DNA of 64,000 bases from sequence record OQ446694.1. One strand, 5' to 3'. Shown in pieces: positions 28,981 to 50,178 of this stretch; position 1 is the first letter of the stretch, and every line of letters begins with the position of its first letter. The DNA comes from Escherichia phage Killian. The notes beneath the pieces were generated by a model, which was not told the origin of the DNA, made no database searches, and saw only the letters and a program-made list of their open reading frames with translations. The translations under genes and the position numbers were made by a program.

Positions 28981-29499
28981 TTAATAACCTCGGTCTTGAC
29001 GAGCGAAGTTTTCAGCATTCTTCAGATAATAAAGTTTAAAGATTTCTTCAGCAGTAAGGCCGAGACCTTGGAACATGTTCAGAACGAAATGAAGAATATC
29101 AATCATTTCGAATTTAATTTCCAACTGGTCTTGTGGAGACAAATCAGTAATCAGAGTTTCACGACGTTCACCATGCTGCGACTTCCAAGGCTTCCATACA
29201 GCAGATGCATCTTTTTCACCATTGCTCATACCACCAAGAGAAGTCAGAAGTTCACGGAATTCATCATCAATGTAATCTTTCTGATTACGCAGCCAATCGA
29301 CAACTTCGCCTGCAGTAGCCAAATCATCAGGATGACGGTTATATTCAGGTTTATCTTTAGCTAAACGAACTTGCAGAGATTTCTGCATATCAAGCATAAC
29401 CTGTAGCGGGTCTTTTTCATCACCGAGAATATCCCAGTATTCATTTTGAGCTTTATCAGCGCCTTCGATCAGTTGACTACATTCGTTGAAATGTGGCAT
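28981..29499 (-). CDS. 56: dCTP pyrophosphatase gp56 (172 aa)
   Basis: MazG-like EExxE motifs (DDEFRELL, HFVLNMF); size and synteny. Confidence 0.85.
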   Translation of the reverse strand: MPHFNECSQLIEGADKAQNEYWDILGDEKDPLQVMLDMQKSLQVRLAKDKPEYNRHPDDLATAGEVVDWLRNQKDYIDDEFRELLTSLGGMSNGEKDASAVWKPWKSQHGERRETLITDLSPQDQLEIKFEMIDILHFVLNMFQGLGLTAEEIFKLYYLKNAENFARQDRGY

Positions 29500-29500
29500 G

Positions 29501-30151
29501 TTATTTTTCCTTTCTTATGAAGTTTTCTATCATATGTCTATAGCAGATATTAGGATAACCTGCCTTGACAGCTATTTTATTAAATTTTGTGCGCTTAGGC
29601 CTATTATTATAAACCCATAATTCATAAAGCGCATCATAACTATTCCATATTTCTCCTCGCCTAGGATTTGGTAAACCATATCGAGGTGAATTTTTACCGC
29701 TAAATCTTCCTTTTCGGGCTTTACTCATATTAGCCTTGGCTTCATCGGATATAATTTTACCTTTATGAGCTAGACGCATTTTGGCTTTAGTTTCTTCTGG
29801 GGTCTTTTTGCCTTTAATCCATGACGGCTTGCCATATCTAGGATTATTTTCACCCGAGAAAAGAGCAGAGTTTTGAATTTTAAGGGTTTCTATTAATCTA
29901 CTTGTTAATTTAACACCTTTATTATATCGCATTAAATTTACAGCATAATGCAATCCTCTCACATCTGGATATATTTTAGTTAATAATCTATGAGCTATAA
30001 AATGCTCACGCGCAGTTAACTCAACAAAATTGTTTTTGTCATCTGCTCCTCCCATACATCTAGGAATTATATGATGGCGTTCTTTATATCCACCAAGATG
30101 CCGGCATTTAGCTTTTGTAATTAAAGCCGAGTAAATTTTTTGGTAATTCAC
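29501..30151 (-). mobile_element. Free-standing HNH homing endonuclease gene (216 aa, GTG start)
   Basis: HNH core ERHHIIPRCMGGADDKNNFVELTAREHFIAH plus repeated NPRYGK-type motifs; GTG start with SD AAGGA; stop abuts gene 56 start. Confidence 0.75.
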
Positions 30152-34530: not shown

Positions 34531-34875
34531 TTAAAAGAATTTAAATTTTTTCTTTGACCTTTTATTAAATGCATCTTGTAGTTGCATTGTAATACATTTT
34601 TCTACATGAGGAGCTAACTCAGCTTTTCTTTCTTGGTCAAGAACAGCAAAGTCCATTACGACTTTTCCATCAACCCAATCTAATTTTGTCACATACACAA
34701 TGTGTGTAGAACCATCTTCTAGTTTAATGACAATCTCCTGGATAACATTTTCCATGGCAGATTTAATTATCTTAAGAGATTCATTAAAAAGACGTTCTTT
34801 TCTTTCTTCTTCCCCCTCCGAAGAGGGGGATTCATCGATAATTTCTAGATCTAAATCTAAATCATCTTTATTCAT
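34531..34875 (-). CDS. 40: gp40 head-assembly protein (114 aa from ATG; 120 aa from GTG)
   Basis: Position between uvsX and 41; acidic N-terminus; start ambiguous. Confidence 0.6.
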   Translation of the reverse strand: MNKDDLDLDLEIIDESPSSEGEEERKERLFNESLKIIKSAMENVIQEIVIKLEDGSTHIVYVTKLDWVDGKVVMDFAVLDQERKAELAPHVEKCITMQLQDAFNKRSKKKFKFF

Positions 34876-36049
34876 TAAATTCTTCCATATCACTTAACTG
34901 ATCTAGGTCAGTTTCTAAATCAGCTGCTGATTTACTTTTACTTTCTGGAGATTTAAATTTTTCAACCTTTGAGTTAATCAATTCATCAACTTCAGCTTCA
35001 ACAATTTCATTACTATCAATAGCACCTAACTGATAAGCACGTTTAATAGCATCTCGGAATGGTTGATGCTTAAATAAAGGACCCCAGAATGTAGTGCAAT
35101 TGGTATCTTTTGCACGCCAAGATTTTTCTTCGCGAATCATCTCGCCAGTTTCTTCGTCAAGAAATTCACGAGCATACCAGCCATTTTTAGGTTTTACCAC
35201 AAATCCTAATTCAAGAGCCATATCTAACAATCCAGAATAAGGATCGATGCCACCGTCAAATTTAACATCAATAAAGAATTTACTTTTTTCTTTAACGGTA
35301 CGAGATTTTTCTACATTTAGAACAAATTGATACCCCTGAAGATCAGAACCATCTTTAATCTGGCGCTTACCGATAATGAATACAGTATCAGCCGAATACA
35401 TTACGCCTGTACCACCTGTCATCACGGTTTTACTAAACATTTCAATTGTTTCAATTGTATGGTTAACCGCAACACACGGAATGTTTTTAATACTAAAATA
35501 AGGAGTAACAATACGGAATAATGACTTCAGTGATTTAGCACGAGTCATATCTGCCACAGATTTTTCATTCAAGGCATCTTCCGTTTCTTTCTTAGAAGCC
35601 ATATTACCAATTGAGTCGATGAATACAATAACTTTTTCACCACGCTCAATAGCTTCAAGCTGATTCACCATATCAATTTTCAGCTGTTCAACTGACTGAA
35701 TTGGTGTATGAATTACTCGTTCCGGGTCAACTCCCATGGATCGCAAATAAGCTGGAGTAATACCAAATTCGCTATCATAGAATAGACATACCGCGTCAGG
35801 ATATTTGTTCAAATACGCCGCAACCATAGTCAAAGACATATTTGATTTAAAGTGTTTAGAAGGACCTGCAAAAATGGTTAAACCAGACTGCATACCACCA
35901 TCAATCGCACCAGAAATAGCGATATTAAGCATTGGGATTTTTGTACGGATTACATCCTTTTCATTAAAGAATTTAGATGTAGTCAGTTCAGCAGTCATTT
36001 TAGAAGTGGAAGCTTTAATCAAACGGGATTTTAAATCTGCAATAGACAT
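34868..36049 (-). CDS. uvsX: Recombinase UvsX (393 aa)
   Basis: RecA-like; Walker A GPSKHFKS; C-terminal acidic tail; matches T4 UvsX closely. Confidence 0.95.
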   Translation of the reverse strand: MSIADLKSRLIKASTSKMTAELTTSKFFNEKDVIRTKIPMLNIAISGAIDGGMQSGLTIFAGPSKHFKSNMSLTMVAAYLNKYPDAVCLFYDSEFGITPAYLRSMGVDPERVIHTPIQSVEQLKIDMVNQLEAIERGEKVIVFIDSIGNMASKKETEDALNEKSVADMTRAKSLKSLFRIVTPYFSIKNIPCVAVNHTIETIEMFSKTVMTGGTGVMYSADTVFIIGKRQIKDGSDLQGYQFVLNVEKSRTVKEKSKFFIDVKFDGGIDPYSGLLDMALELGFVVKPKNGWYAREFLDEETGEMIREEKSWRAKDTNCTTFWGPLFKHQPFRDAIKRAYQLGAIDSNEIVEAEVDELINSKVEKFKSPESKSKSAADLETDLDQLSDMEEFNE

Positions 36050-36126
36050 TCATTTTTTCCATAGGCATCATTATATTTTCCTCACTGGTTAAAGATAAAG
36101 TAATTATAACACAATAAATTTAGGCA

Positions 36127-36969
36127 TTAATCAACTGCTATTGGATGAATAGCATTAAACTTATGAAACGCTTCTGATTTTTCTTTGCGCGAAACACACA
36201 TGCGAAGAACCTTTAATGGCTCGTCTTCTTCACCTAATGATTTTCGTTTTTCAATATTAGAAGTTTTCCAACGAGCTTGCTCTGGAAACTCTCTATTGAT
36301 TTGCTCAAGAGCTCTATTATGTTTTGAATTACTACGAATTGAACTACATCCGCCTGGAGCTTGTGCTTTTCCAGATACAACCAGATATTTGAACAAGGCC
36401 AAATGCGGATAACCTTGATTAATTAAATTGAGAAATGCATACATATCTTCGCATAAATCAATTTTTCCATACCCAATTTGTTCTGTCGTAAGTTTTCCAA
36501 GGTCATACCATGTATTCGTGAATCCATATGAATTTTCACGATAATTACCCCAAGATGAAGTAATTTTAAAAATTGGTAAACGAGCATGACCATGATAATA
36601 CCCGCAATCCATGGCATCTTCAACGTATTGAATCAATTCATAGAACTGTTCACGAGTTAATTGATTAATTTTATCTACGCAGCGACGATCATCTTTCTTT
36701 CGCATTGAACTCATACGAATAGTAGTATCATCATCAATCATCCAGATTCGTTGGCCTGCATACATATCAGTAATTGCTTTACGAGTACCAGCAATTCCAT
36801 TAACATCATCAGGAATAGTTATAATTTTGGCTCTAGACCCGTAAGCGTCATAATAAGCTTTTTCTTCGTGTTCACGTACTACAATATGCGGTTCATAATC
36901 AGATGGAAACATATCAAGGGCAGAAACTGCCCCTACGCGTTGATAGCTTGGAATTACGAATTGAATCAT
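36127..36969 (-). CDS. GT-A fold glycosyltransferase in the beta-gt locus (280 aa), likely T2/T6-type beta-glucosyl-HMC-alpha-glucosyltransferase
   Basis: VIPSYQR and WMIDDD (DxD) motifs; sits between uvsX and 42 where T4 has the 351-aa beta-gt; ATG at 36969 with SD GGTGAG. Confidence 0.6.
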   Translation of the reverse strand: MIQFVIPSYQRVGAVSALDMFPSDYEPHIVVREHEEKAYYDAYGSRAKIITIPDDVNGIAGTRKAITDMYAGQRIWMIDDDTTIRMSSMRKKDDRRCVDKINQLTREQFYELIQYVEDAMDCGYYHGHARLPIFKITSSWGNYRENSYGFTNTWYDLGKLTTEQIGYGKIDLCEDMYAFLNLINQGYPHLALFKYLVVSGKAQAPGGCSSIRSNSKHNRALEQINREFPEQARWKTSNIEKRKSLGEEDEPLKVLRMCVSRKEKSEAFHKFNAIHPIAVD

Positions 36970-37706
36970 TTCCACTCACCGTTATAATCTTTTTTCGCAA
37001 TATGAGTTTCGCCAGTTTTCCACCAATGGTCAACCAAATAAAAATGACGGGAATACACATGAAGGCTTCCGACATTCCATATAATGGAACCTGCTTTATA
37101 CTGACGAGTTGAATCACCTGCATTCAAATCAGATACTAATTTATCTAGTACGTATTTTTGCCATGCATAATCATTACGGAATCCGAAAACCACGTCATTT
37201 GAACGCATGCTTACTACTGCATTGACTTTCTTATCACGAATCAGGTACTGTACTGTATTAGTACACATGAAATCTGACATACCATCTTTATTGTAGTCAA
37301 ACTGCATGGATGGACGAGTATAAATCATGATACCACGCCGAGAATCAGGATTTTGACCAAGCTCAGCTAAACACATATCATACTGGGCATAGTTATCTTC
37401 TGACCAGATGGCCCAACCATAATTCGAGTTAATTTCGCCTTTAGAAGATGCTACCTGTTGCCAAATCTTTGGTGTTTCACCTGGAATATCTTTAACAAAC
37501 AGACTTTGAGACTTATACCATTCAAGTTCACGTTGAATGTATTCATCATTAAGAGCGCCAAAAATAAACGGTTCATCTGCTACAAATGATGCACCAATAA
37601 TTTCAATAGTTTTAACACCAGTTTTATCAACTACGAAATCTTTTTCCTTTAATGCAAGCCCCAAATGAAGACGGATTTCTTCAACTGTCATAGAGTCACT
37701 AATCAT
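36966..37706 (-). CDS. 42: dCMP hydroxymethylase gp42 (246 aa)
   Basis: MISDSMTVEEIRLHLGLALKEKDFVVDK...; thymidylate-synthase-like; matches T4 gp42. Confidence 0.95.
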   Translation of the reverse strand: MISDSMTVEEIRLHLGLALKEKDFVVDKTGVKTIEIIGASFVADEPFIFGALNDEYIQRELEWYKSQSLFVKDIPGETPKIWQQVASSKGEINSNYGWAIWSEDNYAQYDMCLAELGQNPDSRRGIMIYTRPSMQFDYNKDGMSDFMCTNTVQYLIRDKKVNAVVSMRSNDVVFGFRNDYAWQKYVLDKLVSDLNAGDSTRQYKAGSIIWNVGSLHVYSRHFYLVDHWWKTGETHIAKKDYNGEWK

Positions 37707-37713
37707 TTAAACC

Positions 37714-37863
37714 TCAATTGATACATTCATATTTAACTTGTAACAGTAATAAACCCCAACCTATAATAAGTGTCGGAATCATAAGAGGAACTGTTACGCT
37801 ATAGTATATACTTATTATAATCATCAAGATTAAAAGCAATACTGCTAAAATTTTGCTTTTCAT
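37714..37863 (-). CDS. Small membrane peptide (49 aa), imm.1 position
   Basis: Hand translation MKSKILAVLLLILMIIISIYYSVTVPLMIP...; ATGA overlap with imm stop. Confidence 0.4.
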   Translation of the reverse strand: MKSKILAVLLLILMIIISIYYSVTVPLMIPTLIIGWGLLLLQVKYECIN

Positions 37864-38111
37864 TCCTTCTCTCTGATGATAATTACTTGGTTTTGCTGTG
37901 CAGATTTTTTAGTTTCACCCGCAATTGACCAAATAAATGTAATAAACCAACCAATGATTGACCAGTTAAACAGTAAAGATGTGAAAAAGATTCCTACTGT
38001 CGATTTTGACCCACGCATCAAGGCGATGAACCACGGAAGCATGTATATAATAATAGCCAACACGCCTGAAACTAAAACCATAAAAATTGAACCTGCTACT
38101 AAAGTTTCCAT
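37860..38111 (-). CDS. imm: Superinfection immunity protein Imm (83 aa)
   Basis: 83-aa two-helix membrane protein between 42 and 43, as in T4. Confidence 0.8.
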   Translation of the reverse strand: METLVAGSIFMVLVSGVLAIIIYMLPWFIALMRGSKSTVGIFFTSLLFNWSIIGWFITFIWSIAGETKKSAQQNQVIIIREKE

Positions 38112-38118
38112 GTTTTCC

Positions 38119-38499
38119 TCACTTAGTCAAATTTTTTACGCATGAATTATAAGAATTCACTACATACTCCATTGGAGCATTTTTACCAGTACGCCATTGG
38201 TAATTATTAGCCCAATTAGCCCAAAGTTCGGCGCAGTAGTTTTCAATTTTTTCTTCGCGTGTAATTACATCCGAATTACGATATGCTTGGGCAGATTCAT
38301 CTGGACGAATAGCTTCATCAAAATTCGCCTGCATTTGTTCTACTGTCTGTTTTGGAGCTTCTTTATAACACTTGACGTTAGGATTATAAAATTTGCTTGA
38401 ACAGTTTACAATTTTTCCTACATCAGACTGATTTACTACCGGTCCTTGAGCTACACAGCCAGTAAGACCTAATGCAATAACCAAAATAGCAATTTTCAT
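38119..38499 (-). CDS. Lipoprotein (126 aa)
   Basis: Signal peptide with lipobox LTGCVAQ; ORF track, ATG start. Confidence 0.55.
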   Translation of the reverse strand: MKIAILVIALGLTGCVAQGPVVNQSDVGKIVNCSSKFYNPNVKCYKEAPKQTVEQMQANFDEAIRPDESAQAYRNSDVITREEKIENYCAELWANWANNYQWRTGKNAPMEYVVNSYNSCVKNLTK

Positions 38500-38509
38500 A
38501 ATAATTTCC

Positions 38510-38767
38510 TCAAATACAAGTAGTAATTACTCCAGTAGTGCTTACACAGGTATTACCTAATTGAACACCAAGCGTTCCATTAGTATTCATATGAAGATTA
38601 TCATCAATTTTTGTTGATACTTTACCATTCATGTGAATAACAGTATTAGATTCAATCACATTCTGAGTGTCATTTTCAATATCAATAAATGGAACAGCTG
38701 CTAATGCAACTAGAACAACTGCTAATGCAACTAAACACGCTGCTAAACAACCATAAACAATTTTCAT
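38510..38767 (-). CDS. Small membrane protein (85 aa)
   Basis: ORF track 38510..38956 trimmed: its upstream part contains promoter and leader; ATG at 38767 with SD GGAG; MKIVYGCLAACLVALAVVLVALAAVP... Confidence 0.5.
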   Translation of the reverse strand: MKIVYGCLAACLVALAVVLVALAAVPFIDIENDTQNVIESNTVIHMNGKVSTKIDDNLHMNTNGTLGVQLGNTCVSTTGVITTCI

Positions 38768-38811
38768 TTTATTCTCCAAATCCGTATCAGTTGATAGTTG
38801 TATAGTACCAC

Positions 38812-38831
38812 GGAAGAACAGGGATGTAAAT
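38812..38831 (-). promoter_or_regulatory. Early sigma70-type promoter with conserved leader
   Basis: Minus strand ATTTAC...TGgTACTAT followed by the 47-bp leader repeat. Confidence 0.5.
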
Positions 38832-38928
38832 AGTTTTGTGAAAAAATTTTTAATGAATTTACAGGACCTAGAATCATCTATTTTTCTTAAGTATAGATTT
38901 ATATTACTTGTATGAAAAAGGGACCCGG

Positions 38929-38947
38929 AGGTCCCTAGATTTATTCT
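38929..38947 (-). terminator. Terminator hairpin after gene 43
   Basis: GGGACC-UCCG-GGUCCC followed by UUUUUCAUAC on the minus strand. Confidence 0.6.
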
Positions 38948-38948
38948 A

Positions 38949-41645
38949 TCAGCCAAACAGGAAGTCTAACGAAGCTTTTTCTTCATAGTCCATACCCGCC
39001 GATTCACACATGCCCGCAAGCGGTTTAACAAACGATTTTTGGAACAAAGTTGAGTAGTCAATCCAAGACAGTACATCAGAACGAATTTCTTTTGGAAGTT
39101 CTGTGCCTGATGGCCAAGCAATGCACTTGTCACCAAATGGATTTCCTTCACGTAATGGAAGAACCATTACCTTATTTCCATCCAAAATTGGAGCTACACC
39201 TAAACCGCTAACAGCTCGACGATAAGTTAGCACACCACGAATATGGAACGGACATTTAAATCCTGGCCAACCTTTATCATCATATTTCGCTATATCGTTC
39301 GCAGTTTTTACTTCAGCAATAACTTTATAGTCAAGTTGACGATATTCTTTCTCAAAGTTCTTGTAGTATTCTTGGACAGACTCTTCGCCTTCCTGAAGAA
39401 TACGACGAATACTTTCTTCGAGAGCTTCTTGTACTGCTTTTGGTGTTGAACTCTGCTGAGTTTCCATACCCATGATTTTTAGATGTGGTTCAGCAAATCG
39501 CTTATCTTCCATATCATAAACGTTCAGAGCATAACGTTTTTTCGCTTTCCAAAATCCACCAACACCCTTTGAACCAAGCGGAGGACAAGAAATAGCTTCA
39601 CGGTCCATATGCATCAGATGCTCGCGGTTATTCATATAATCACATAACTCACGATATGCAACATCAATCATAGGTTCCATCTTTTTCTTACCAAACTGAT
39701 TCATGAATTCAACTAAATCATTTTGTTCTTTAAAGCGATCAAGACCTACTTTTTCAATTACTTTATCTACACAAACATATACCGAATCAGTATCACCTGC
39801 TGCGATGAAATCTTCACCATTAGTTCCACACACTTTATTTAGATATTCATTAATTTTGCGAGCAATCCACTGAATACCGACTTGACCGAAAATTGTGATA
39901 GCAGTAGCATTTCGCAAATCATAGTAGCGGAAATGAATATTACCAAGAGCACCATAAAGACTGTTAATAAGAATTTTACGGTTCAGCTGATTTGTGTTAG
40001 CAAGTGTAGCAGCTTTTTCACATTCTTCAATCAGACTGTTAAGAACAGATTCGGTGTAATTCGATAATTCGTTTAAGAAATCATCATTGAACTTAACATA
40101 TCGTTCAACTTCCGGTTTAGTTGAACAAGACCCTGCACCTTTCATAATAATCTTTTTAATAGCTTCGGCATTCATTTCTTCAGCGAACATTTTCTTTTTC
40201 CAATCTTTACGCTGGAAAAATACTTTAGCGATTTCCTTTGGAATGATACCTTCTTGATGCTTATCATACATCCATCCATTCGGAGAACAAGAATATTCAT
40301 CACTTGGCTTAGGAGCTGTTCCTGCGATATATTCATGAATTGGATGAACTTTAAATTGCCCGCGAATAGTCTCAGGACTAATGTTAACCTGACGAATAAT
40401 GCTAGGATACAGAGACGTCAAGTCAAAACTCATAATGTATCGACGAGCAATCGGTTTAGGTTCAAACACAAATGCACCTGGAAAACTCTGTTTAACGTGC
40501 GAACCTTGTTGAGGAATAACCTTATGTTCACCTTTCAGTGAGTTAAAAATAATAGCATCCCAAGTTTTAATAGGACTCATTACACCAGAAAAAGGCATTT
40601 TAGCGTAATAAGACATACTTAAAACTAGATCGATAAACCCACGAATTTTATCAATTGCTTGAACTGATTCTACGTCAATGATGTTATAACTAATGTATCG
40701 TTGATGATTAGTCTCACGAAGTTTATTAATAGGACCATCGTACGGCAATTTACCTTTTTTGGTTTCATGTTGAGCAACTGATTCCAAAGAGAACGATGGC
40801 AAATTAGTAAATGCGAATTTCTTGTACAAATCTAAATAATCAAGAATAGATACGCCATCAATAGAATAAATTTCTTTACTACCGTACATATTTTGAATTA
40901 GTTTAGATTTTACTCGACCGATTGGAGAGAAACGTTTCATACTACGTTCACCGAGAACCATTTTAACACGATTCATGATATACGGAACGTCAAATCCCTC
41001 AATATTCCAACCAGTAAAAATAGCAGGTCGTTTCTGTTCCCAGAGATTAATATATTCCATGAGCATATCACGCTCATTATCAAATGGCATATAAATTACT
41101 CGGTCAAGAATTTCTTGAGGAACTTCATCACCACCTTCACAGTCAAGCTTAGCAGCTAACTTTGCGTCCCATTTTGATACTGAACCGTACATTGAATTCA
41201 ACAAATCAAAGACGTAAAAACGATCGTCAATTGAATCATAATGAGTGATAGCATCAATTTCATATTCTGCTTTCATTGGGTCAGGAAATTTATCACCAGT
41301 AACCTCAATGTCACAGTTAGCTACACGAACAAATTTTCGGTCATAAACAATTTCTGAACCATATGTATCACTGATATAAGCGAGTTTAAAATCGTTCATA
41401 CCGAGAGCTTCGAGACCAATGTCTTCCATTCGTTTCATCCAGTCTCGTGCATCTTTCATTGATGGAAATTTTTGAGGAGCACAATTTTTACCATAAATGT
41501 CTTTGTATTTTGACTCTTCCTTACAATGCCTAAACATAGTCGGAAGATATTCTACTTCACGGGTACGTTCCTTTCCATTTTCATCAATATAACGTTCAAC
41601 AATATTATTTCCGACTGTTTCGATAGAGATATAAAATTCTTTCAT
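38949..41645 (-). CDS. 43: DNA polymerase gp43 (898 aa)
   Basis: Family B polymerase with exonuclease and DTDS motifs; 898 aa; near-identical to T4 gp43 as recalled. Confidence 0.97.
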   Translation of the reverse strand: MKEFYISIETVGNNIVERYIDENGKERTREVEYLPTMFRHCKEESKYKDIYGKNCAPQKFPSMKDARDWMKRMEDIGLEALGMNDFKLAYISDTYGSEIVYDRKFVRVANCDIEVTGDKFPDPMKAEYEIDAITHYDSIDDRFYVFDLLNSMYGSVSKWDAKLAAKLDCEGGDEVPQEILDRVIYMPFDNERDMLMEYINLWEQKRPAIFTGWNIEGFDVPYIMNRVKMVLGERSMKRFSPIGRVKSKLIQNMYGSKEIYSIDGVSILDYLDLYKKFAFTNLPSFSLESVAQHETKKGKLPYDGPINKLRETNHQRYISYNIIDVESVQAIDKIRGFIDLVLSMSYYAKMPFSGVMSPIKTWDAIIFNSLKGEHKVIPQQGSHVKQSFPGAFVFEPKPIARRYIMSFDLTSLYPSIIRQVNISPETIRGQFKVHPIHEYIAGTAPKPSDEYSCSPNGWMYDKHQEGIIPKEIAKVFFQRKDWKKKMFAEEMNAEAIKKIIMKGAGSCSTKPEVERYVKFNDDFLNELSNYTESVLNSLIEECEKAATLANTNQLNRKILINSLYGALGNIHFRYYDLRNATAITIFGQVGIQWIARKINEYLNKVCGTNGEDFIAAGDTDSVYVCVDKVIEKVGLDRFKEQNDLVEFMNQFGKKKMEPMIDVAYRELCDYMNNREHLMHMDREAISCPPLGSKGVGGFWKAKKRYALNVYDMEDKRFAEPHLKIMGMETQQSSTPKAVQEALEESIRRILQEGEESVQEYYKNFEKEYRQLDYKVIAEVKTANDIAKYDDKGWPGFKCPFHIRGVLTYRRAVSGLGVAPILDGNKVMVLPLREGNPFGDKCIAWPSGTELPKEIRSDVLSWIDYSTLFQKSFVKPLAGMCESAGMDYEEKASLDFLFG

Positions 41646-47182: not shown

Positions 47183-48198
47183 TGTGTTGCCTCTACATAT
47201 AACTGATTTGCATATTGAATAAGTGCTTCGCGGTCAGAATCAGTGATGTCTGGAATTGCATTAATGTATTCTTCCATCAATGTCTGAAGAGATTGAACTT
47301 CAACTTCTTCACTATCATCTGACTCAACAGAGTTATCAATCTTTGACACAACTCGTAATGAATGCACAACTTTTTCTAGTTCAGATTCGAACTTCGTCAG
47401 ATTTTTGTCTACCTCAGTTACTATAACACGTACTGATAGATTTGTAAAATCTTTATAGTCAATTTTTCCCTTAAATGGATATTGAATTCGACGATGCCAG
47501 GTAGTGTTGTTTGGAATAAATTCCATTCGTTCTGTTTCTGTATCAAACATCCAGAACCCACGAGGGTCATTCTCGTCACCTGCAGTTAGTGTCCATGGTG
47601 TCCCAATATATCTGACGTTAGCAGCCTCAGAGATAGTATGGAAGTGACCAGACCACACTTCTTTATAAGTCTTAAGGAAATCAGGTTCAAGACCGTGAGA
47701 TTTCATTCCTTTATAAAAATAAAATCCATTCAGTTCCCAGTGACCAACACAAAAAGAAGCAGATGAAGTTTTGATGTGTTCAAGAATTTCACCAGTATTT
47801 TCTTCACACATCCAAGGAATTAAATCAATCAAACATCCGTCAAAATCTACTGTAGTAGGCTTATCATATACTTTAACATTAGGATATTTAGCCAAAAGCT
47901 CAGTAGAAGCATTTGGATGCATTACATTTTTGTAGTGGAGATCGTGATTTCCTACAATAGTATGTAATGTGATTCCAGCGTCATCAAGCATTTGAACTAT
48001 TTCACGGGCAAACTCCATAGTTTTATGCGTGATCGCTTTTCGTACATCAAAAATATCACCGTATTGAATCCATACAGTAATTCCATTTTTCTTAGAATAT
48101 TCTATCGCTTGCTTAATTCCGTCAAGTTGAATACCGCGAATCCATTCATCATCAGCTTTAACGCCTAAATGCCAATCACCCAAGTTTAGTATTTTCAT
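47179..48198 (-). CDS. 47: Recombination nuclease subunit gp47, Mre11/SbcD-like (339 aa)
   Basis: Phosphoesterase motifs DWHLG, GDIFD, GNHD; 339 aa as in T4. Confidence 0.93.
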   Translation of the reverse strand: MKILNLGDWHLGVKADDEWIRGIQLDGIKQAIEYSKKNGITVWIQYGDIFDVRKAITHKTMEFAREIVQMLDDAGITLHTIVGNHDLHYKNVMHPNASTELLAKYPNVKVYDKPTTVDFDGCLIDLIPWMCEENTGEILEHIKTSSASFCVGHWELNGFYFYKGMKSHGLEPDFLKTYKEVWSGHFHTISEAANVRYIGTPWTLTAGDENDPRGFWMFDTETERMEFIPNNTTWHRRIQYPFKGKIDYKDFTNLSVRVIVTEVDKNLTKFESELEKVVHSLRVVSKIDNSVESDDSEEVEVQSLQTLMEEYINAIPDITDSDREALIQYANQLYVEATQ

Positions 48199-48799
48199 GG
48201 TGTCTTTTCCATCCTAATTTAGCTGCTTTTGAAACTAGTTCTTTAATTTTTCCTTTTGTCCATTCAGGACCAGGAGGTTCATGACATAACATTTGCTTAA
48301 CTCCGTTATTATACCATTTTTTACCTTTATTATGTGATGAAGCTTTAAATTTATTTGACCTTCCTTTTACATAACCTTCTGGAATATACGGCAAAAAGGC
48401 AGATTTTCCTGTTAATGGGTCATGTGAATGTATATTTCCTTTACAATTATGAGAACCATATAATGGATGATTTTGTCCTTTAATATCTCTTCCAAATGAA
48501 CCTTTTGGAGCAGCATATGACATATTAAAGAATAATGGATTTTTAACCGCATCATGCAAACGTTGATAATATAGCTCGCATTTAATAGCTTCTTCGCGCG
48601 TATCAAATTCATCTAAAATGCATGAATCAAATAAATGTGGGTTATCTGAAAGTTCTTCATTATAAATTTTCTTATACTTTTTAGATAAAACTGATCCATG
48701 ATATCCGGCTAAATGCCTATCTAAAGATGTAGATCCAATATAAAAAGGAGGAAGTTTATCTCCACTATATATTGTTAAATAAGTTATATATTTTTTCAT
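48176..48799 (-). mobile_element. Free-standing GIY-YIG-like (Seg-type) homing endonuclease gene (207 aa)
   Basis: N-terminal YITYL...FYIGST...EEAIKCE resembles the GIY-YIG catalytic module; NUMOD-like repeats NHPLYGSH and GKKWYNNG; 3-prime end overlaps gene 47 start by 23 nt. Confidence 0.6.
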
Positions 48800-48960: not shown

Positions 48961-48976
48961 AAGGGCCGAAGCCCTT
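48961..48976 (-). terminator. UUCG-tetraloop hairpin after a-gt
   Basis: aagggccgaagcccttt followed by U-rich tract on the minus strand. Confidence 0.55.
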
Positions 48977-50178
48977 TATTTTGTAATAATGTCAAACTGT
49001 TCTTTAAAACAGAAGCTTGAATCTTGATGCTGATACAAAAATTCATAAGCTTTTTCGCGTTCACGGTCATAAAGAGTTCGGTCAGATGACAGTTCTTTAA
49101 TACGCTCAAATGTTGATTCCATGTCATTTTCATCAAACCAAACGATACCGCTATCATGAGAAATTAACGGAGTATTATCAACACGGAATTTTAAATTTTC
49201 GCCAGTAGATTTCCAAAATACTGGAATTGTTCCACATGCACCAAGCTCGAGATGAGTATATTCTAAAGAACGTTGTAGATATTTTTTATCCAACTTACTC
49301 AGCTGATAACCAAATCCGGATTTACTCATACGTTCAAGCATTTCGCTATTTACATAACGGTCAAGAATTTGCGTCGGCAAATTAGGAGCAATTTTAATTT
49401 GGTCTACTTGATGAAGACGATAATACTCGTATGGAATTCCTTTTTCTTTAATAGGAATGAACGCTGGAGAACGTTCCAGACCTTCCATAATAGTACTTAG
49501 TCCTGCAGGTTTAAGATGTTTTTCATGAAAATCAAACATCTGATAAAAGCCTTTCCATGTAGTAGTACGACCAATCCAACGGTTGATATTCATGTTAATT
49601 TCAGAAACATCTTTCCAGTAGGTTGATCGAACCTTCGCAATATCCATAGGAGGCTGAAAGTTATATACGGTCGGTGCTTCTTCAATATCATCAAACAGAG
49701 AAACTGTTTCTGGATACCATTCTTTCATTAAAACTTTATTAAAATCGCCATTATCAGAATGACTAAAAATAACATCAGCTCGACGAACAGTTTCTTCTAA
49801 TCCCAAATTTCGGCGTAAAGAAAGAGAAGAATGGTCATGCTGATAAACTACAACACGAACCGAAGGTTTAATATTATCAATAATTTTTTTATAGTTATTA
49901 ATTGTGTCTTCTTCTACTGAAGTAGCAGGAACTGAATTGATAATTAGAATATCACAATCATTTACCAGCTTAAGTGTTTTATCGTATTCTTTTGCCAATA
50001 AAACCGGAATTGAAAATGACTTATAATCATGTGCGCAATTACGAGTAAATGATTTATCTTTAGCATAAACCAAAGTTACTTCATGACCATTTTTAATAAA
50101 CCAATCACGTTGCTCAAGAGAAAATTTAGTTACACCACAACCTTCAAGACCTCGAGCCATAAAAATACATACTTTCAT
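48976..50178 (-). CDS. a-gt: Alpha-glucosyltransferase (400 aa)
   Basis: 400 aa, ...CIFMARGLEGCGVTKFSLEQRDWFIKNGHEVTLVYAKDKSF... matches T4 alpha-gt as recalled. Confidence 0.92.
   Translation of the reverse strand: MKVCIFMARGLEGCGVTKFSLEQRDWFIKNGHEVTLVYAKDKSFTRNCAHDYKSFSIPVLLAKEYDKTLKLVNDCDILIINSVPATSVEEDTINNYKKIIDNIKPSVRVVVYQHDHSSLSLRRNLGLEETVRRADVIFSHSDNGDFNKVLMKEWYPETVSLFDDIEEAPTVYNFQPPMDIAKVRSTYWKDVSEINMNINRWIGRTTTWKGFYQMFDFHEKHLKPAGLSTIMEGLERSPAFIPIKEKGIPYEYYRLHQVDQIKIAPNLPTQILDRYVNSEMLERMSKSGFGYQLSKLDKKYLQRSLEYTHLELGACGTIPVFWKSTGENLKFRVDNTPLISHDSGIVWFDENDMESTFERIKELSSDRTLYDREREKAYEFLYQHQDSSFCFKEQFDIITK

Follow-up and report, generated by a model that had tools for sequence, protein, structure and literature searches.

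We analyzed a 64-kb window of the genome of Escherichia phage Killian (OQ446694.1), that is, one stretch of 64,000 nucleotides to which all positions below refer, and we focused on the open reading frame (ORF) that lies between uvsX and gene 42. This ORF, on the minus strand at 36127 to 36969 (280 amino acids; stop codon included in the coordinates), was assigned as ba-gt, also called ggt or TAGT, the gene for beta-glucosyl-HMC-alpha-glucosyltransferase, from its Pfam and PHROG matches, its amino acid identity to known enzymes, and its GT-A fold. Its reading frame starts with ATG at 36969 and ends with TAA at 36127 to 36129. An alternative GTG lies two codons further upstream, at 36975, and is the start used by a mechanical ORF list; the T2 annotation uses the ATG. 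The ATG overlaps the stop codon of gene 42 as ATGA, a sequence arrangement that suggests translational coupling. On the downstream side lies the uvsX recombinase gene (minus strand, 34868 to 36049; Pfam T4_UVSX_C, 4.7e-39, and RecA, 2.4e-11). On the upstream side lies gene 42 (minus strand, 36966 to 37706; Pfam Thymidylat_synt), which encodes the dCMP hydroxymethylase that makes the hmC precursor. The GC content of the ORF (36.2%, versus 34.8% for the window) is in line with that of its neighbors, and the 22-kb stretch surrounding it is 96 to 98% identical to many Tequatrovirus genomes, which marks the window as DNA of a T-even coliphage.

We compared the locus with those of T4, T2, T6, TB37, and Geo by using blastn and the annotation of T4. 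Homology to T4 ends at 36037, 12 nt inside uvsX, and restarts at 36984, 18 nt inside gene 42. The segment between these breakpoints (36038 to 36983), which has no nucleotide homology to T4, is thus a cassette in the slot that holds segA and beta-gt in T4; it is 946 bp long in the window and 1,941 bp long in T4. The alignments to T2, T6, TB37, and Geo remain collinear from uvsX through ggt and 42 to imm, with about 96% nucleotide identity. TAGT has been described as syntenic in position with T4 beta-GT (PMC13390438). We considered a beta-gt displaced to another place within the 64 kb and rejected it, because a tblastn search of the window with T4 beta-gt returned nothing (best E value, 1.5).

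The two arrangements differ in frequency. At the nucleotide level, ba-gt is present in 474 GenBank phage records at 90% identity or more, mostly annotated under this name; at the protein level, it is present in 689 GenBank phage records, including T4-like phages of Klebsiella, Enterobacter, and Salmonella at about 64%. A T4-type beta-gt is found in 126 GenBank phage records, 29 of which have a gene at least 90% identical to that of T4. Among these phages, the arrangement with TAGT prevails, and T4 departs from it. The initial annotation had stated that the gene replaces beta-gt. This holds for the slot, which is the one taken up by segA plus beta-gt in T4, but the wording is T4-centric, since the TAGT arrangement is the commoner one (474 versus about 29 records).

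Profile and sequence comparisons identified the product as an enzyme of the T2/T6 type. Residues 3 to 207 match positions 2 to 205 of the 205-position Pfam profile TAGT (PF20691) with 38.8 bits, above the gathering cutoff of 27.5 (1.3e-9), and the protein matches PHROG 842, "beta-glucosyl-HMC-alpha-glucosyltransferase," at 1e-88. It is 98% identical in amino acid sequence to the ggt products of T2 (MH751506 and AP018813) and T6 (AP018814 and MH550421), 99% identical to that of vB_Eco_TB37, and 97% identical to that of Geo; phage PBM-1 encodes a protein with the very same sequence (100%). A profile search against the T2/T6 beta-alpha glucosyltransferase, which had been proposed as a check, therefore came out in favor of the assignment by PHROG, by Pfam, and by amino acid identity.

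The gene shares with T2 ggt its length of 280 codons' worth of protein, its position between uvsX and gene 42, the ATGA overlap, and the alpha-gt partner; the two proteins differ by five substitutions, at window residues R11 (H11 in T2), S23, K92, I101, and P251. The position and the alpha-gt partner are likewise shared with T6 ggt, from which the window protein differs at S23, Y40, D55, K92, I101, and R106. The closest phage with measured DNA chemistry that we compared is the Durham phage vB_Eco_TB37 (OZ035850). Its TAGT differs by three conservative substitutions (S23T, K92R, and I101V), its alpha-gt product is 100% identical, and the gene order imm.1-imm-49-amino-acid ORF-42-TAGT-uvsX is the same.

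The relationship to T4 beta-gt is of another kind. The T4 enzyme (351 amino acids; PDB 1JG7) has no detectable similarity to the window protein (best BLASTP E value, 3.3) and matches PF09198 instead. The two enzymes have in common the slot, UDP-glucose as the donor, an inverting reaction with a beta-linked product, and a role in hypermodifying hmC DNA. However, the T4 enzyme has a GT-B fold rather than GT-A, and its acceptor is naked hmC rather than alpha-glucosyl-hmC; the T4 slot additionally holds the homing endonuclease gene segA.

An AlphaFold2 model of the window protein (pLDDT, 94.9) had structural matches solely among GT-A glycosyltransferases, and the protein is predicted from this model to form a single Rossmann-like alpha/beta/alpha domain like those of solved GT-A enzymes. 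The cellular relatives in fold, namely GT2-type enzymes (AvpGT, 9jma; GlfT2, 4fix; BcsA, 4p00; TarS, 5tze) and the GT27 enzyme GalNAc-T1 (8v9q), are 8 to 15% identical to it and differ in their acceptors, that of TAGT being a sugar on duplex DNA. PDB sequences were searched both with the protein alone and with a profile built from 100 sequences, and no chain gave a significant match; we set aside a fragment of IGF2BP3 (E value, 0.76), polycystin-2 (about 0.4 to 0.9), and the GT2 enzyme 9jma (1.9).

To define conserved positions, we used an exhaustive HMMER search that yielded 341 family representatives, of which 100 full-length sequences were aligned; all 100 match TAGT. This search supplied the alignment, since a shallower homologue search had found 12 relatives, too few for modeling. 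Three residues are invariant in the 100 sequences (D80, D175, and G207), and nine more are conserved in at least 90% of them (I6, P7, R11, R63, D79, D81, G186, G206, and R212). All 12 are present in the window protein. The DxD motif of the GT-A enzyme is DDD at residues 79 to 81 (minus strand, 36727 to 36735; GATGATGAT), made up of the invariant D80 and its two conserved neighbors. In the model and the alignment, it lies directly after predicted strand 74-78, at the end of the fourth strand, which is the canonical place for DxD, and it probably binds a divalent metal and the diphosphate of UDP. Arg11 (minus strand, 36937 to 36939) lies in the N-terminal IPxYxR loop after strand 1 and is encoded by CGC here and by CAT (His) in T2; its conservation and its place in the model suggest that it is part of a nucleotide-binding loop. 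Glu174-Asp175 (minus strand, 36445 to 36450) forms the N terminus of helix 174-184 in the model. By conservation, modeled position, and analogy with inverting GT2 enzymes, this pair is the likely candidate for the catalytic base of an inverting GT-A enzyme.

Taken together, these data agree with what had been claimed for the ORF in the initial annotation. The 280-amino-acid frame is intact and is flanked by uvsX and gene 42, as judged by Pfam. It encodes a DxD-motif glycosyltransferase, with the motif conserved, behind a predicted strand, and in a GT-A fold in the model. It is not the 351-amino-acid GT-B enzyme of T4, to which it has neither sequence similarity nor similarity in fold.

Other genes of the modification pathway are also present in the window. 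The alpha-glucosyltransferase gene alpha-gt, whose product makes the alpha-glucosyl-hmC acceptor, lies at 48976 to 50178 on the minus strand, where it had been placed before, and its assignment is secure (Pfam AGT, 5.7e-236; PHROG 2888, alpha-glucosyltransferase, 4.9e-222); the product is 91% identical to that of T4. A gp56-like dCTPase/dUTPase, an enzyme that keeps unmodified dCTP out of phage DNA, is encoded at 28981 to 29499 on the minus strand (PHROG 173, nucleoside triphosphate pyrophosphohydrolase, 8.8e-47), in a position that we take to be syntenic with T4 gene 56. Within the 64-kb window, alpha-gt therefore occurs together with TAGT, and T4-type beta-gt is absent. We also considered whether gene 42 might encode a 5-hydroxy-dCMP synthase of the Mosigvirus type, which would imply arabinosylation; its 97% amino acid identity to T4 gp42 ruled this out.

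These genes suggest the following pathway. The gp56-like enzyme and gp42, with a phage dNMP kinase, would cause 5-hydroxymethyl-dCTP to be incorporated instead of dCTP. With UDP-glucose as the donor, the alpha-gt product would then glucosylate about three quarters of the hmC in alpha linkage, and TAGT, using the same donor, would attach a second glucose at the 6-OH of the alpha-glucose. Since the formation of a beta linkage from UDP-alpha-glucose requires inversion, TAGT would act by an inverting mechanism, and its product would be beta-1,6-glucosyl-alpha-glucosyl-hmC, that is, gentiobiosyl-hmC. In this scheme, DDD79-81 would hold the metal and UDP, and E174-D175 would be the likely base. The donor, the acceptor, and the beta-1,6 linkage come from the literature on T2 and T6 and would apply to this phage by virtue of sequence identity. 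Published work reports that alpha-gt glucosylates about three quarters of hmC and that the second glucose is beta-linked, giving gentiobiosyl-hmC (PMC13216743; bioRxiv 10.64898/2026.02.25.707755). TAGT glucosylates cytosine that is already alpha-glucosylated, and for the T6 enzyme, AF3 predicts a GT-A fold (PMC13216743). In T6 deleted for ba-gt, only alpha-glucosyl-hmC is left (PMC11078745).

[quoted passage not shown] Earlier publications cover the gene and the enzyme as well as the fold, the product, and the synteny with T4 beta-gt; this is textbook matter that was restated in papers of 2024 to 2026.

Measurements on close relatives give an indication of the DNA composition to be expected. 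HPLC/MS of TB37, NR1, Some, and other Tequatrovirus phages found about one-third 5hmdC, about two-thirds alpha-5-gentiobiosyl-mdC, and a trace of the alpha-glucosyl form, and the beta-glucosyl form was not detected (PMC13390438). Since the TAGT and alpha-gt proteins of the window are 99% and 100% identical, respectively, to those of TB37 and the gene carries none of the lesions seen in reference stocks (see below), we predict, with moderate confidence, a similar profile: one-quarter to one-third naked 5hmC, the rest mostly gentiobiosyl-5hmC, little alpha-glucosyl-5hmC, and no beta-glucosyl-5hmC. The T2/T6-style modification that had been proposed earlier, with alpha-glucosyl and gentiobiosyl hmC, is thus backed by chemistry measured in phages with nearly identical enzymes (PMC13390438).

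The proportions are less certain than the kinds of base. T2 and T6 enzymes are 98% identical, and T6 has about 72% gentiobiosyl-hmC. In T2, the proportion is about 5% (bioRxiv 10.64898/2026.02.25.707755; PMC11078745), and Geo, EL, and BGP have a ratio of 1:2:2 (PMC13390438). The ratio of mono- to diglucosylated bases cannot be fixed by sequence alone, because the window enzyme is 98% identical to that of a phage with about 5% and 97% identical to that of a phage with 1:2:2. The gene could be weakly active and the phage T2-like, with mostly alpha-glucosyl-hmC, a few percent gentiobiosyl-hmC, and about 25% naked hmC. T2 indeed has its 98% identical gene at the same locus and yet makes little of the gentiobiosyl form, the Geo group is intermediate, and the window protein has three private differences from that of TB37 (S23, K92, and I101). 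We nevertheless consider weak activity unlikely. Every family-conserved residue is intact. Of the T2 substitutions, a single one (R11H) falls on a column conserved in the family; the window protein lacks it, and we found it in no records other than those of T2 and SV76. TB37, with its TAGT at 99% and alpha-gt at 100% identity, was measured at about two-thirds gentiobiosyl.

Lesions in this gene are found in several reference records. R11H (CGT to CAT; window equivalent, 36937 to 36939) is present in all T2 records and in SV76; at least 90% of the 100 aligned family members have Arg at this position. In T6 MH550421, CAG is changed to TAG (amber) at ggt codon 10, which corresponds to window positions 36940 to 36942, and the coding sequence is annotated from Met20, with 261 amino acids; a form starting at Met20 would be without strand 1, I6, P7, and R11. 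In T6 AP018814 (the same as RefSeq NC_054907), one GAT is lost from the (GAT)3 that encodes the DxD motif (window equivalent, 36727 to 36735), changing DDD to DD, and phage HP3.2 has the same deletion. We searched for these alleles in GenBank phages by using megablast with 30-mers, each of which covers one haplotype context. No other phage record had the amber allele of T6 MH550421, and the R11H 30-mer, in its one haplotype context, was found in no GenBank phage outside the T2 records and SV76. Scans of IMG/VR gave no contigs with the H11 allele and five with the R11 allele, too few to be informative. The window copy has none of the three lesions, i.e., neither R11H of T2 nor the amber codon 10 or the loss of a motif Asp of T6.

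Slippage of (GAT)3 at the catalytic motif may be recurrent in laboratory stocks. A possible, though rather doubtful, extension is that the window allele represents the undamaged natural ba-gt and that the gap in diglucosylation between T2 and T6 (about 5% versus about 72%) is set by point lesions, namely a hypomorphic R11H, (GAT)3 slippage, and nonsense mutation. If so, sequence would allow the ratio of mono- to diglucosylated bases to be predicted, and the textbook phenotype would not be that of several "reference" T-even genomes.

A second possibility is that the enzyme is a functional counterpart of T4 beta-gt with a GT-A fold and attaches glucose directly to naked 5hmC instead of to alpha-glucosyl-hmC. 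The gene occupies the beta-gt slot, and Pfam TAGT was defined on TET dioxygenase-associated enzymes that are presumed to act on 5hmC itself. Other members of TAGT are thought to glycosylate 5hmC directly, and membership in the family does not by itself fix the acceptor. However, phages with a 99% identical enzyme keep about one-third of their 5hmdC naked and have no detected beta-glucosyl-5hmdC, and T6 deleted for ba-gt retains alpha-glucosyl-hmC and loses only the gentiobiosyl form. The classical enzymology of T2 and T6, as cited in two recent papers (PMC13216743; bioRxiv 10.64898/2026.02.25.707755), also points to an alpha-glucosyl acceptor. We regard direct action on 5hmC as very improbable. 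Still less credible is a decayed or nonfunctional remnant: although the T6 stocks with an amber codon 10 or one motif Asp lost indicate that the gene appears dispensable in the laboratory, the window frame is uninterrupted over its full length and retains every conserved residue, another phage has an identical protein (100%), and the identity of at least 95% in about 470 records indicates purifying selection.

Addition of a second glucose by a T2/T6-type enzyme has consequences for host defense. The base excised by Brig1 is alpha-glucosyl-hmC. [quoted passage not shown] BapA is unable to deglucosylate gentiobiosyl-hmC, and the naked hmC kept by T2/T6-type phages is a substrate of Brig3 (bioRxiv 10.64898/2026.02.25.707755). 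GmrSD targets alpha-glucosyl, beta-glucosyl, and gentiobiosyl DNA alike (PMC13216743). The initial annotation had predicted altered sensitivity to type IV restriction and to CRISPR systems. The work on Brig1, BapA/Brig3, and GmrSD backs a change in sensitivity to defenses; for the CRISPR part, we found no gentiobiosyl-specific data in the literature. For the window, the outcome is that the gene is correctly annotated by function and that the DNA chemistry can be predicted with reasonable confidence; this chemistry affects which defenses can act. It teaches no new biology, and its use lies in the choice of phages and the interpretation of host range.

We also noted several features of the surrounding DNA. 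A scan of 35800 to 38600 for promoters and terminators gave numbers at the level of chance (14 promoter-like sites versus 12.5 expected; 1 terminator-like site versus 1.2 expected). In the 77-bp spacer between ggt and uvsX (36050 to 36126), TGCCTAA, 11 nt, and TATAAT follow one another on the minus strand, overlapping the ggt stop codon. By eye, these elements resemble the MotA box and the -10 of T4 middle promoters and would make a putative promoter of this type for uvsX; it is absent from the list of the sigma-70 scan. The sole terminator-like match of the region, in a number equal to chance expectation, is a GC-rich hairpin (GGGCAG-TTT-CTGCCC), with a T-rich tract behind it, at 36915 to 36935 on the minus strand, within ggt codons 12 to 19. 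It is also kept in T2, T6, TB37, and Geo.

Between imm.1 and gene 43, a segment of approximately 260 bp (38500 to 38760) is absent from T4, T2, and T6 and is shared with Geo. A small ORF in it (38510 to 38956, last 85 amino acids) includes a hydrophobic stretch and matches PHROG 4189, of unknown function. Two homing endonuclease genes lie near other genes of the pathway. One (29501 to 30151; PHROG 655, 5.5e-59) adjoins the gp56-like dCTPase gene, and the other (48176 to 48799; PHROG 10820, "HNH endonuclease," 7.6e-94, with a weak GIY-YIG Pfam match) is just downstream of alpha-gt. Neither is in the uvsX-42 slot, where T4 has segA. Lastly, in T4-like phages outside Tequatrovirus (CC31, S16, Merlin, STP4-a, CF1, KM16, and Muldoon), a beta-gt homologue with about 49 to 53% identity to that of T4 adjoins a TAGT homologue, which raises the possibility of a beta-linked diglucosyl modification in those phages.
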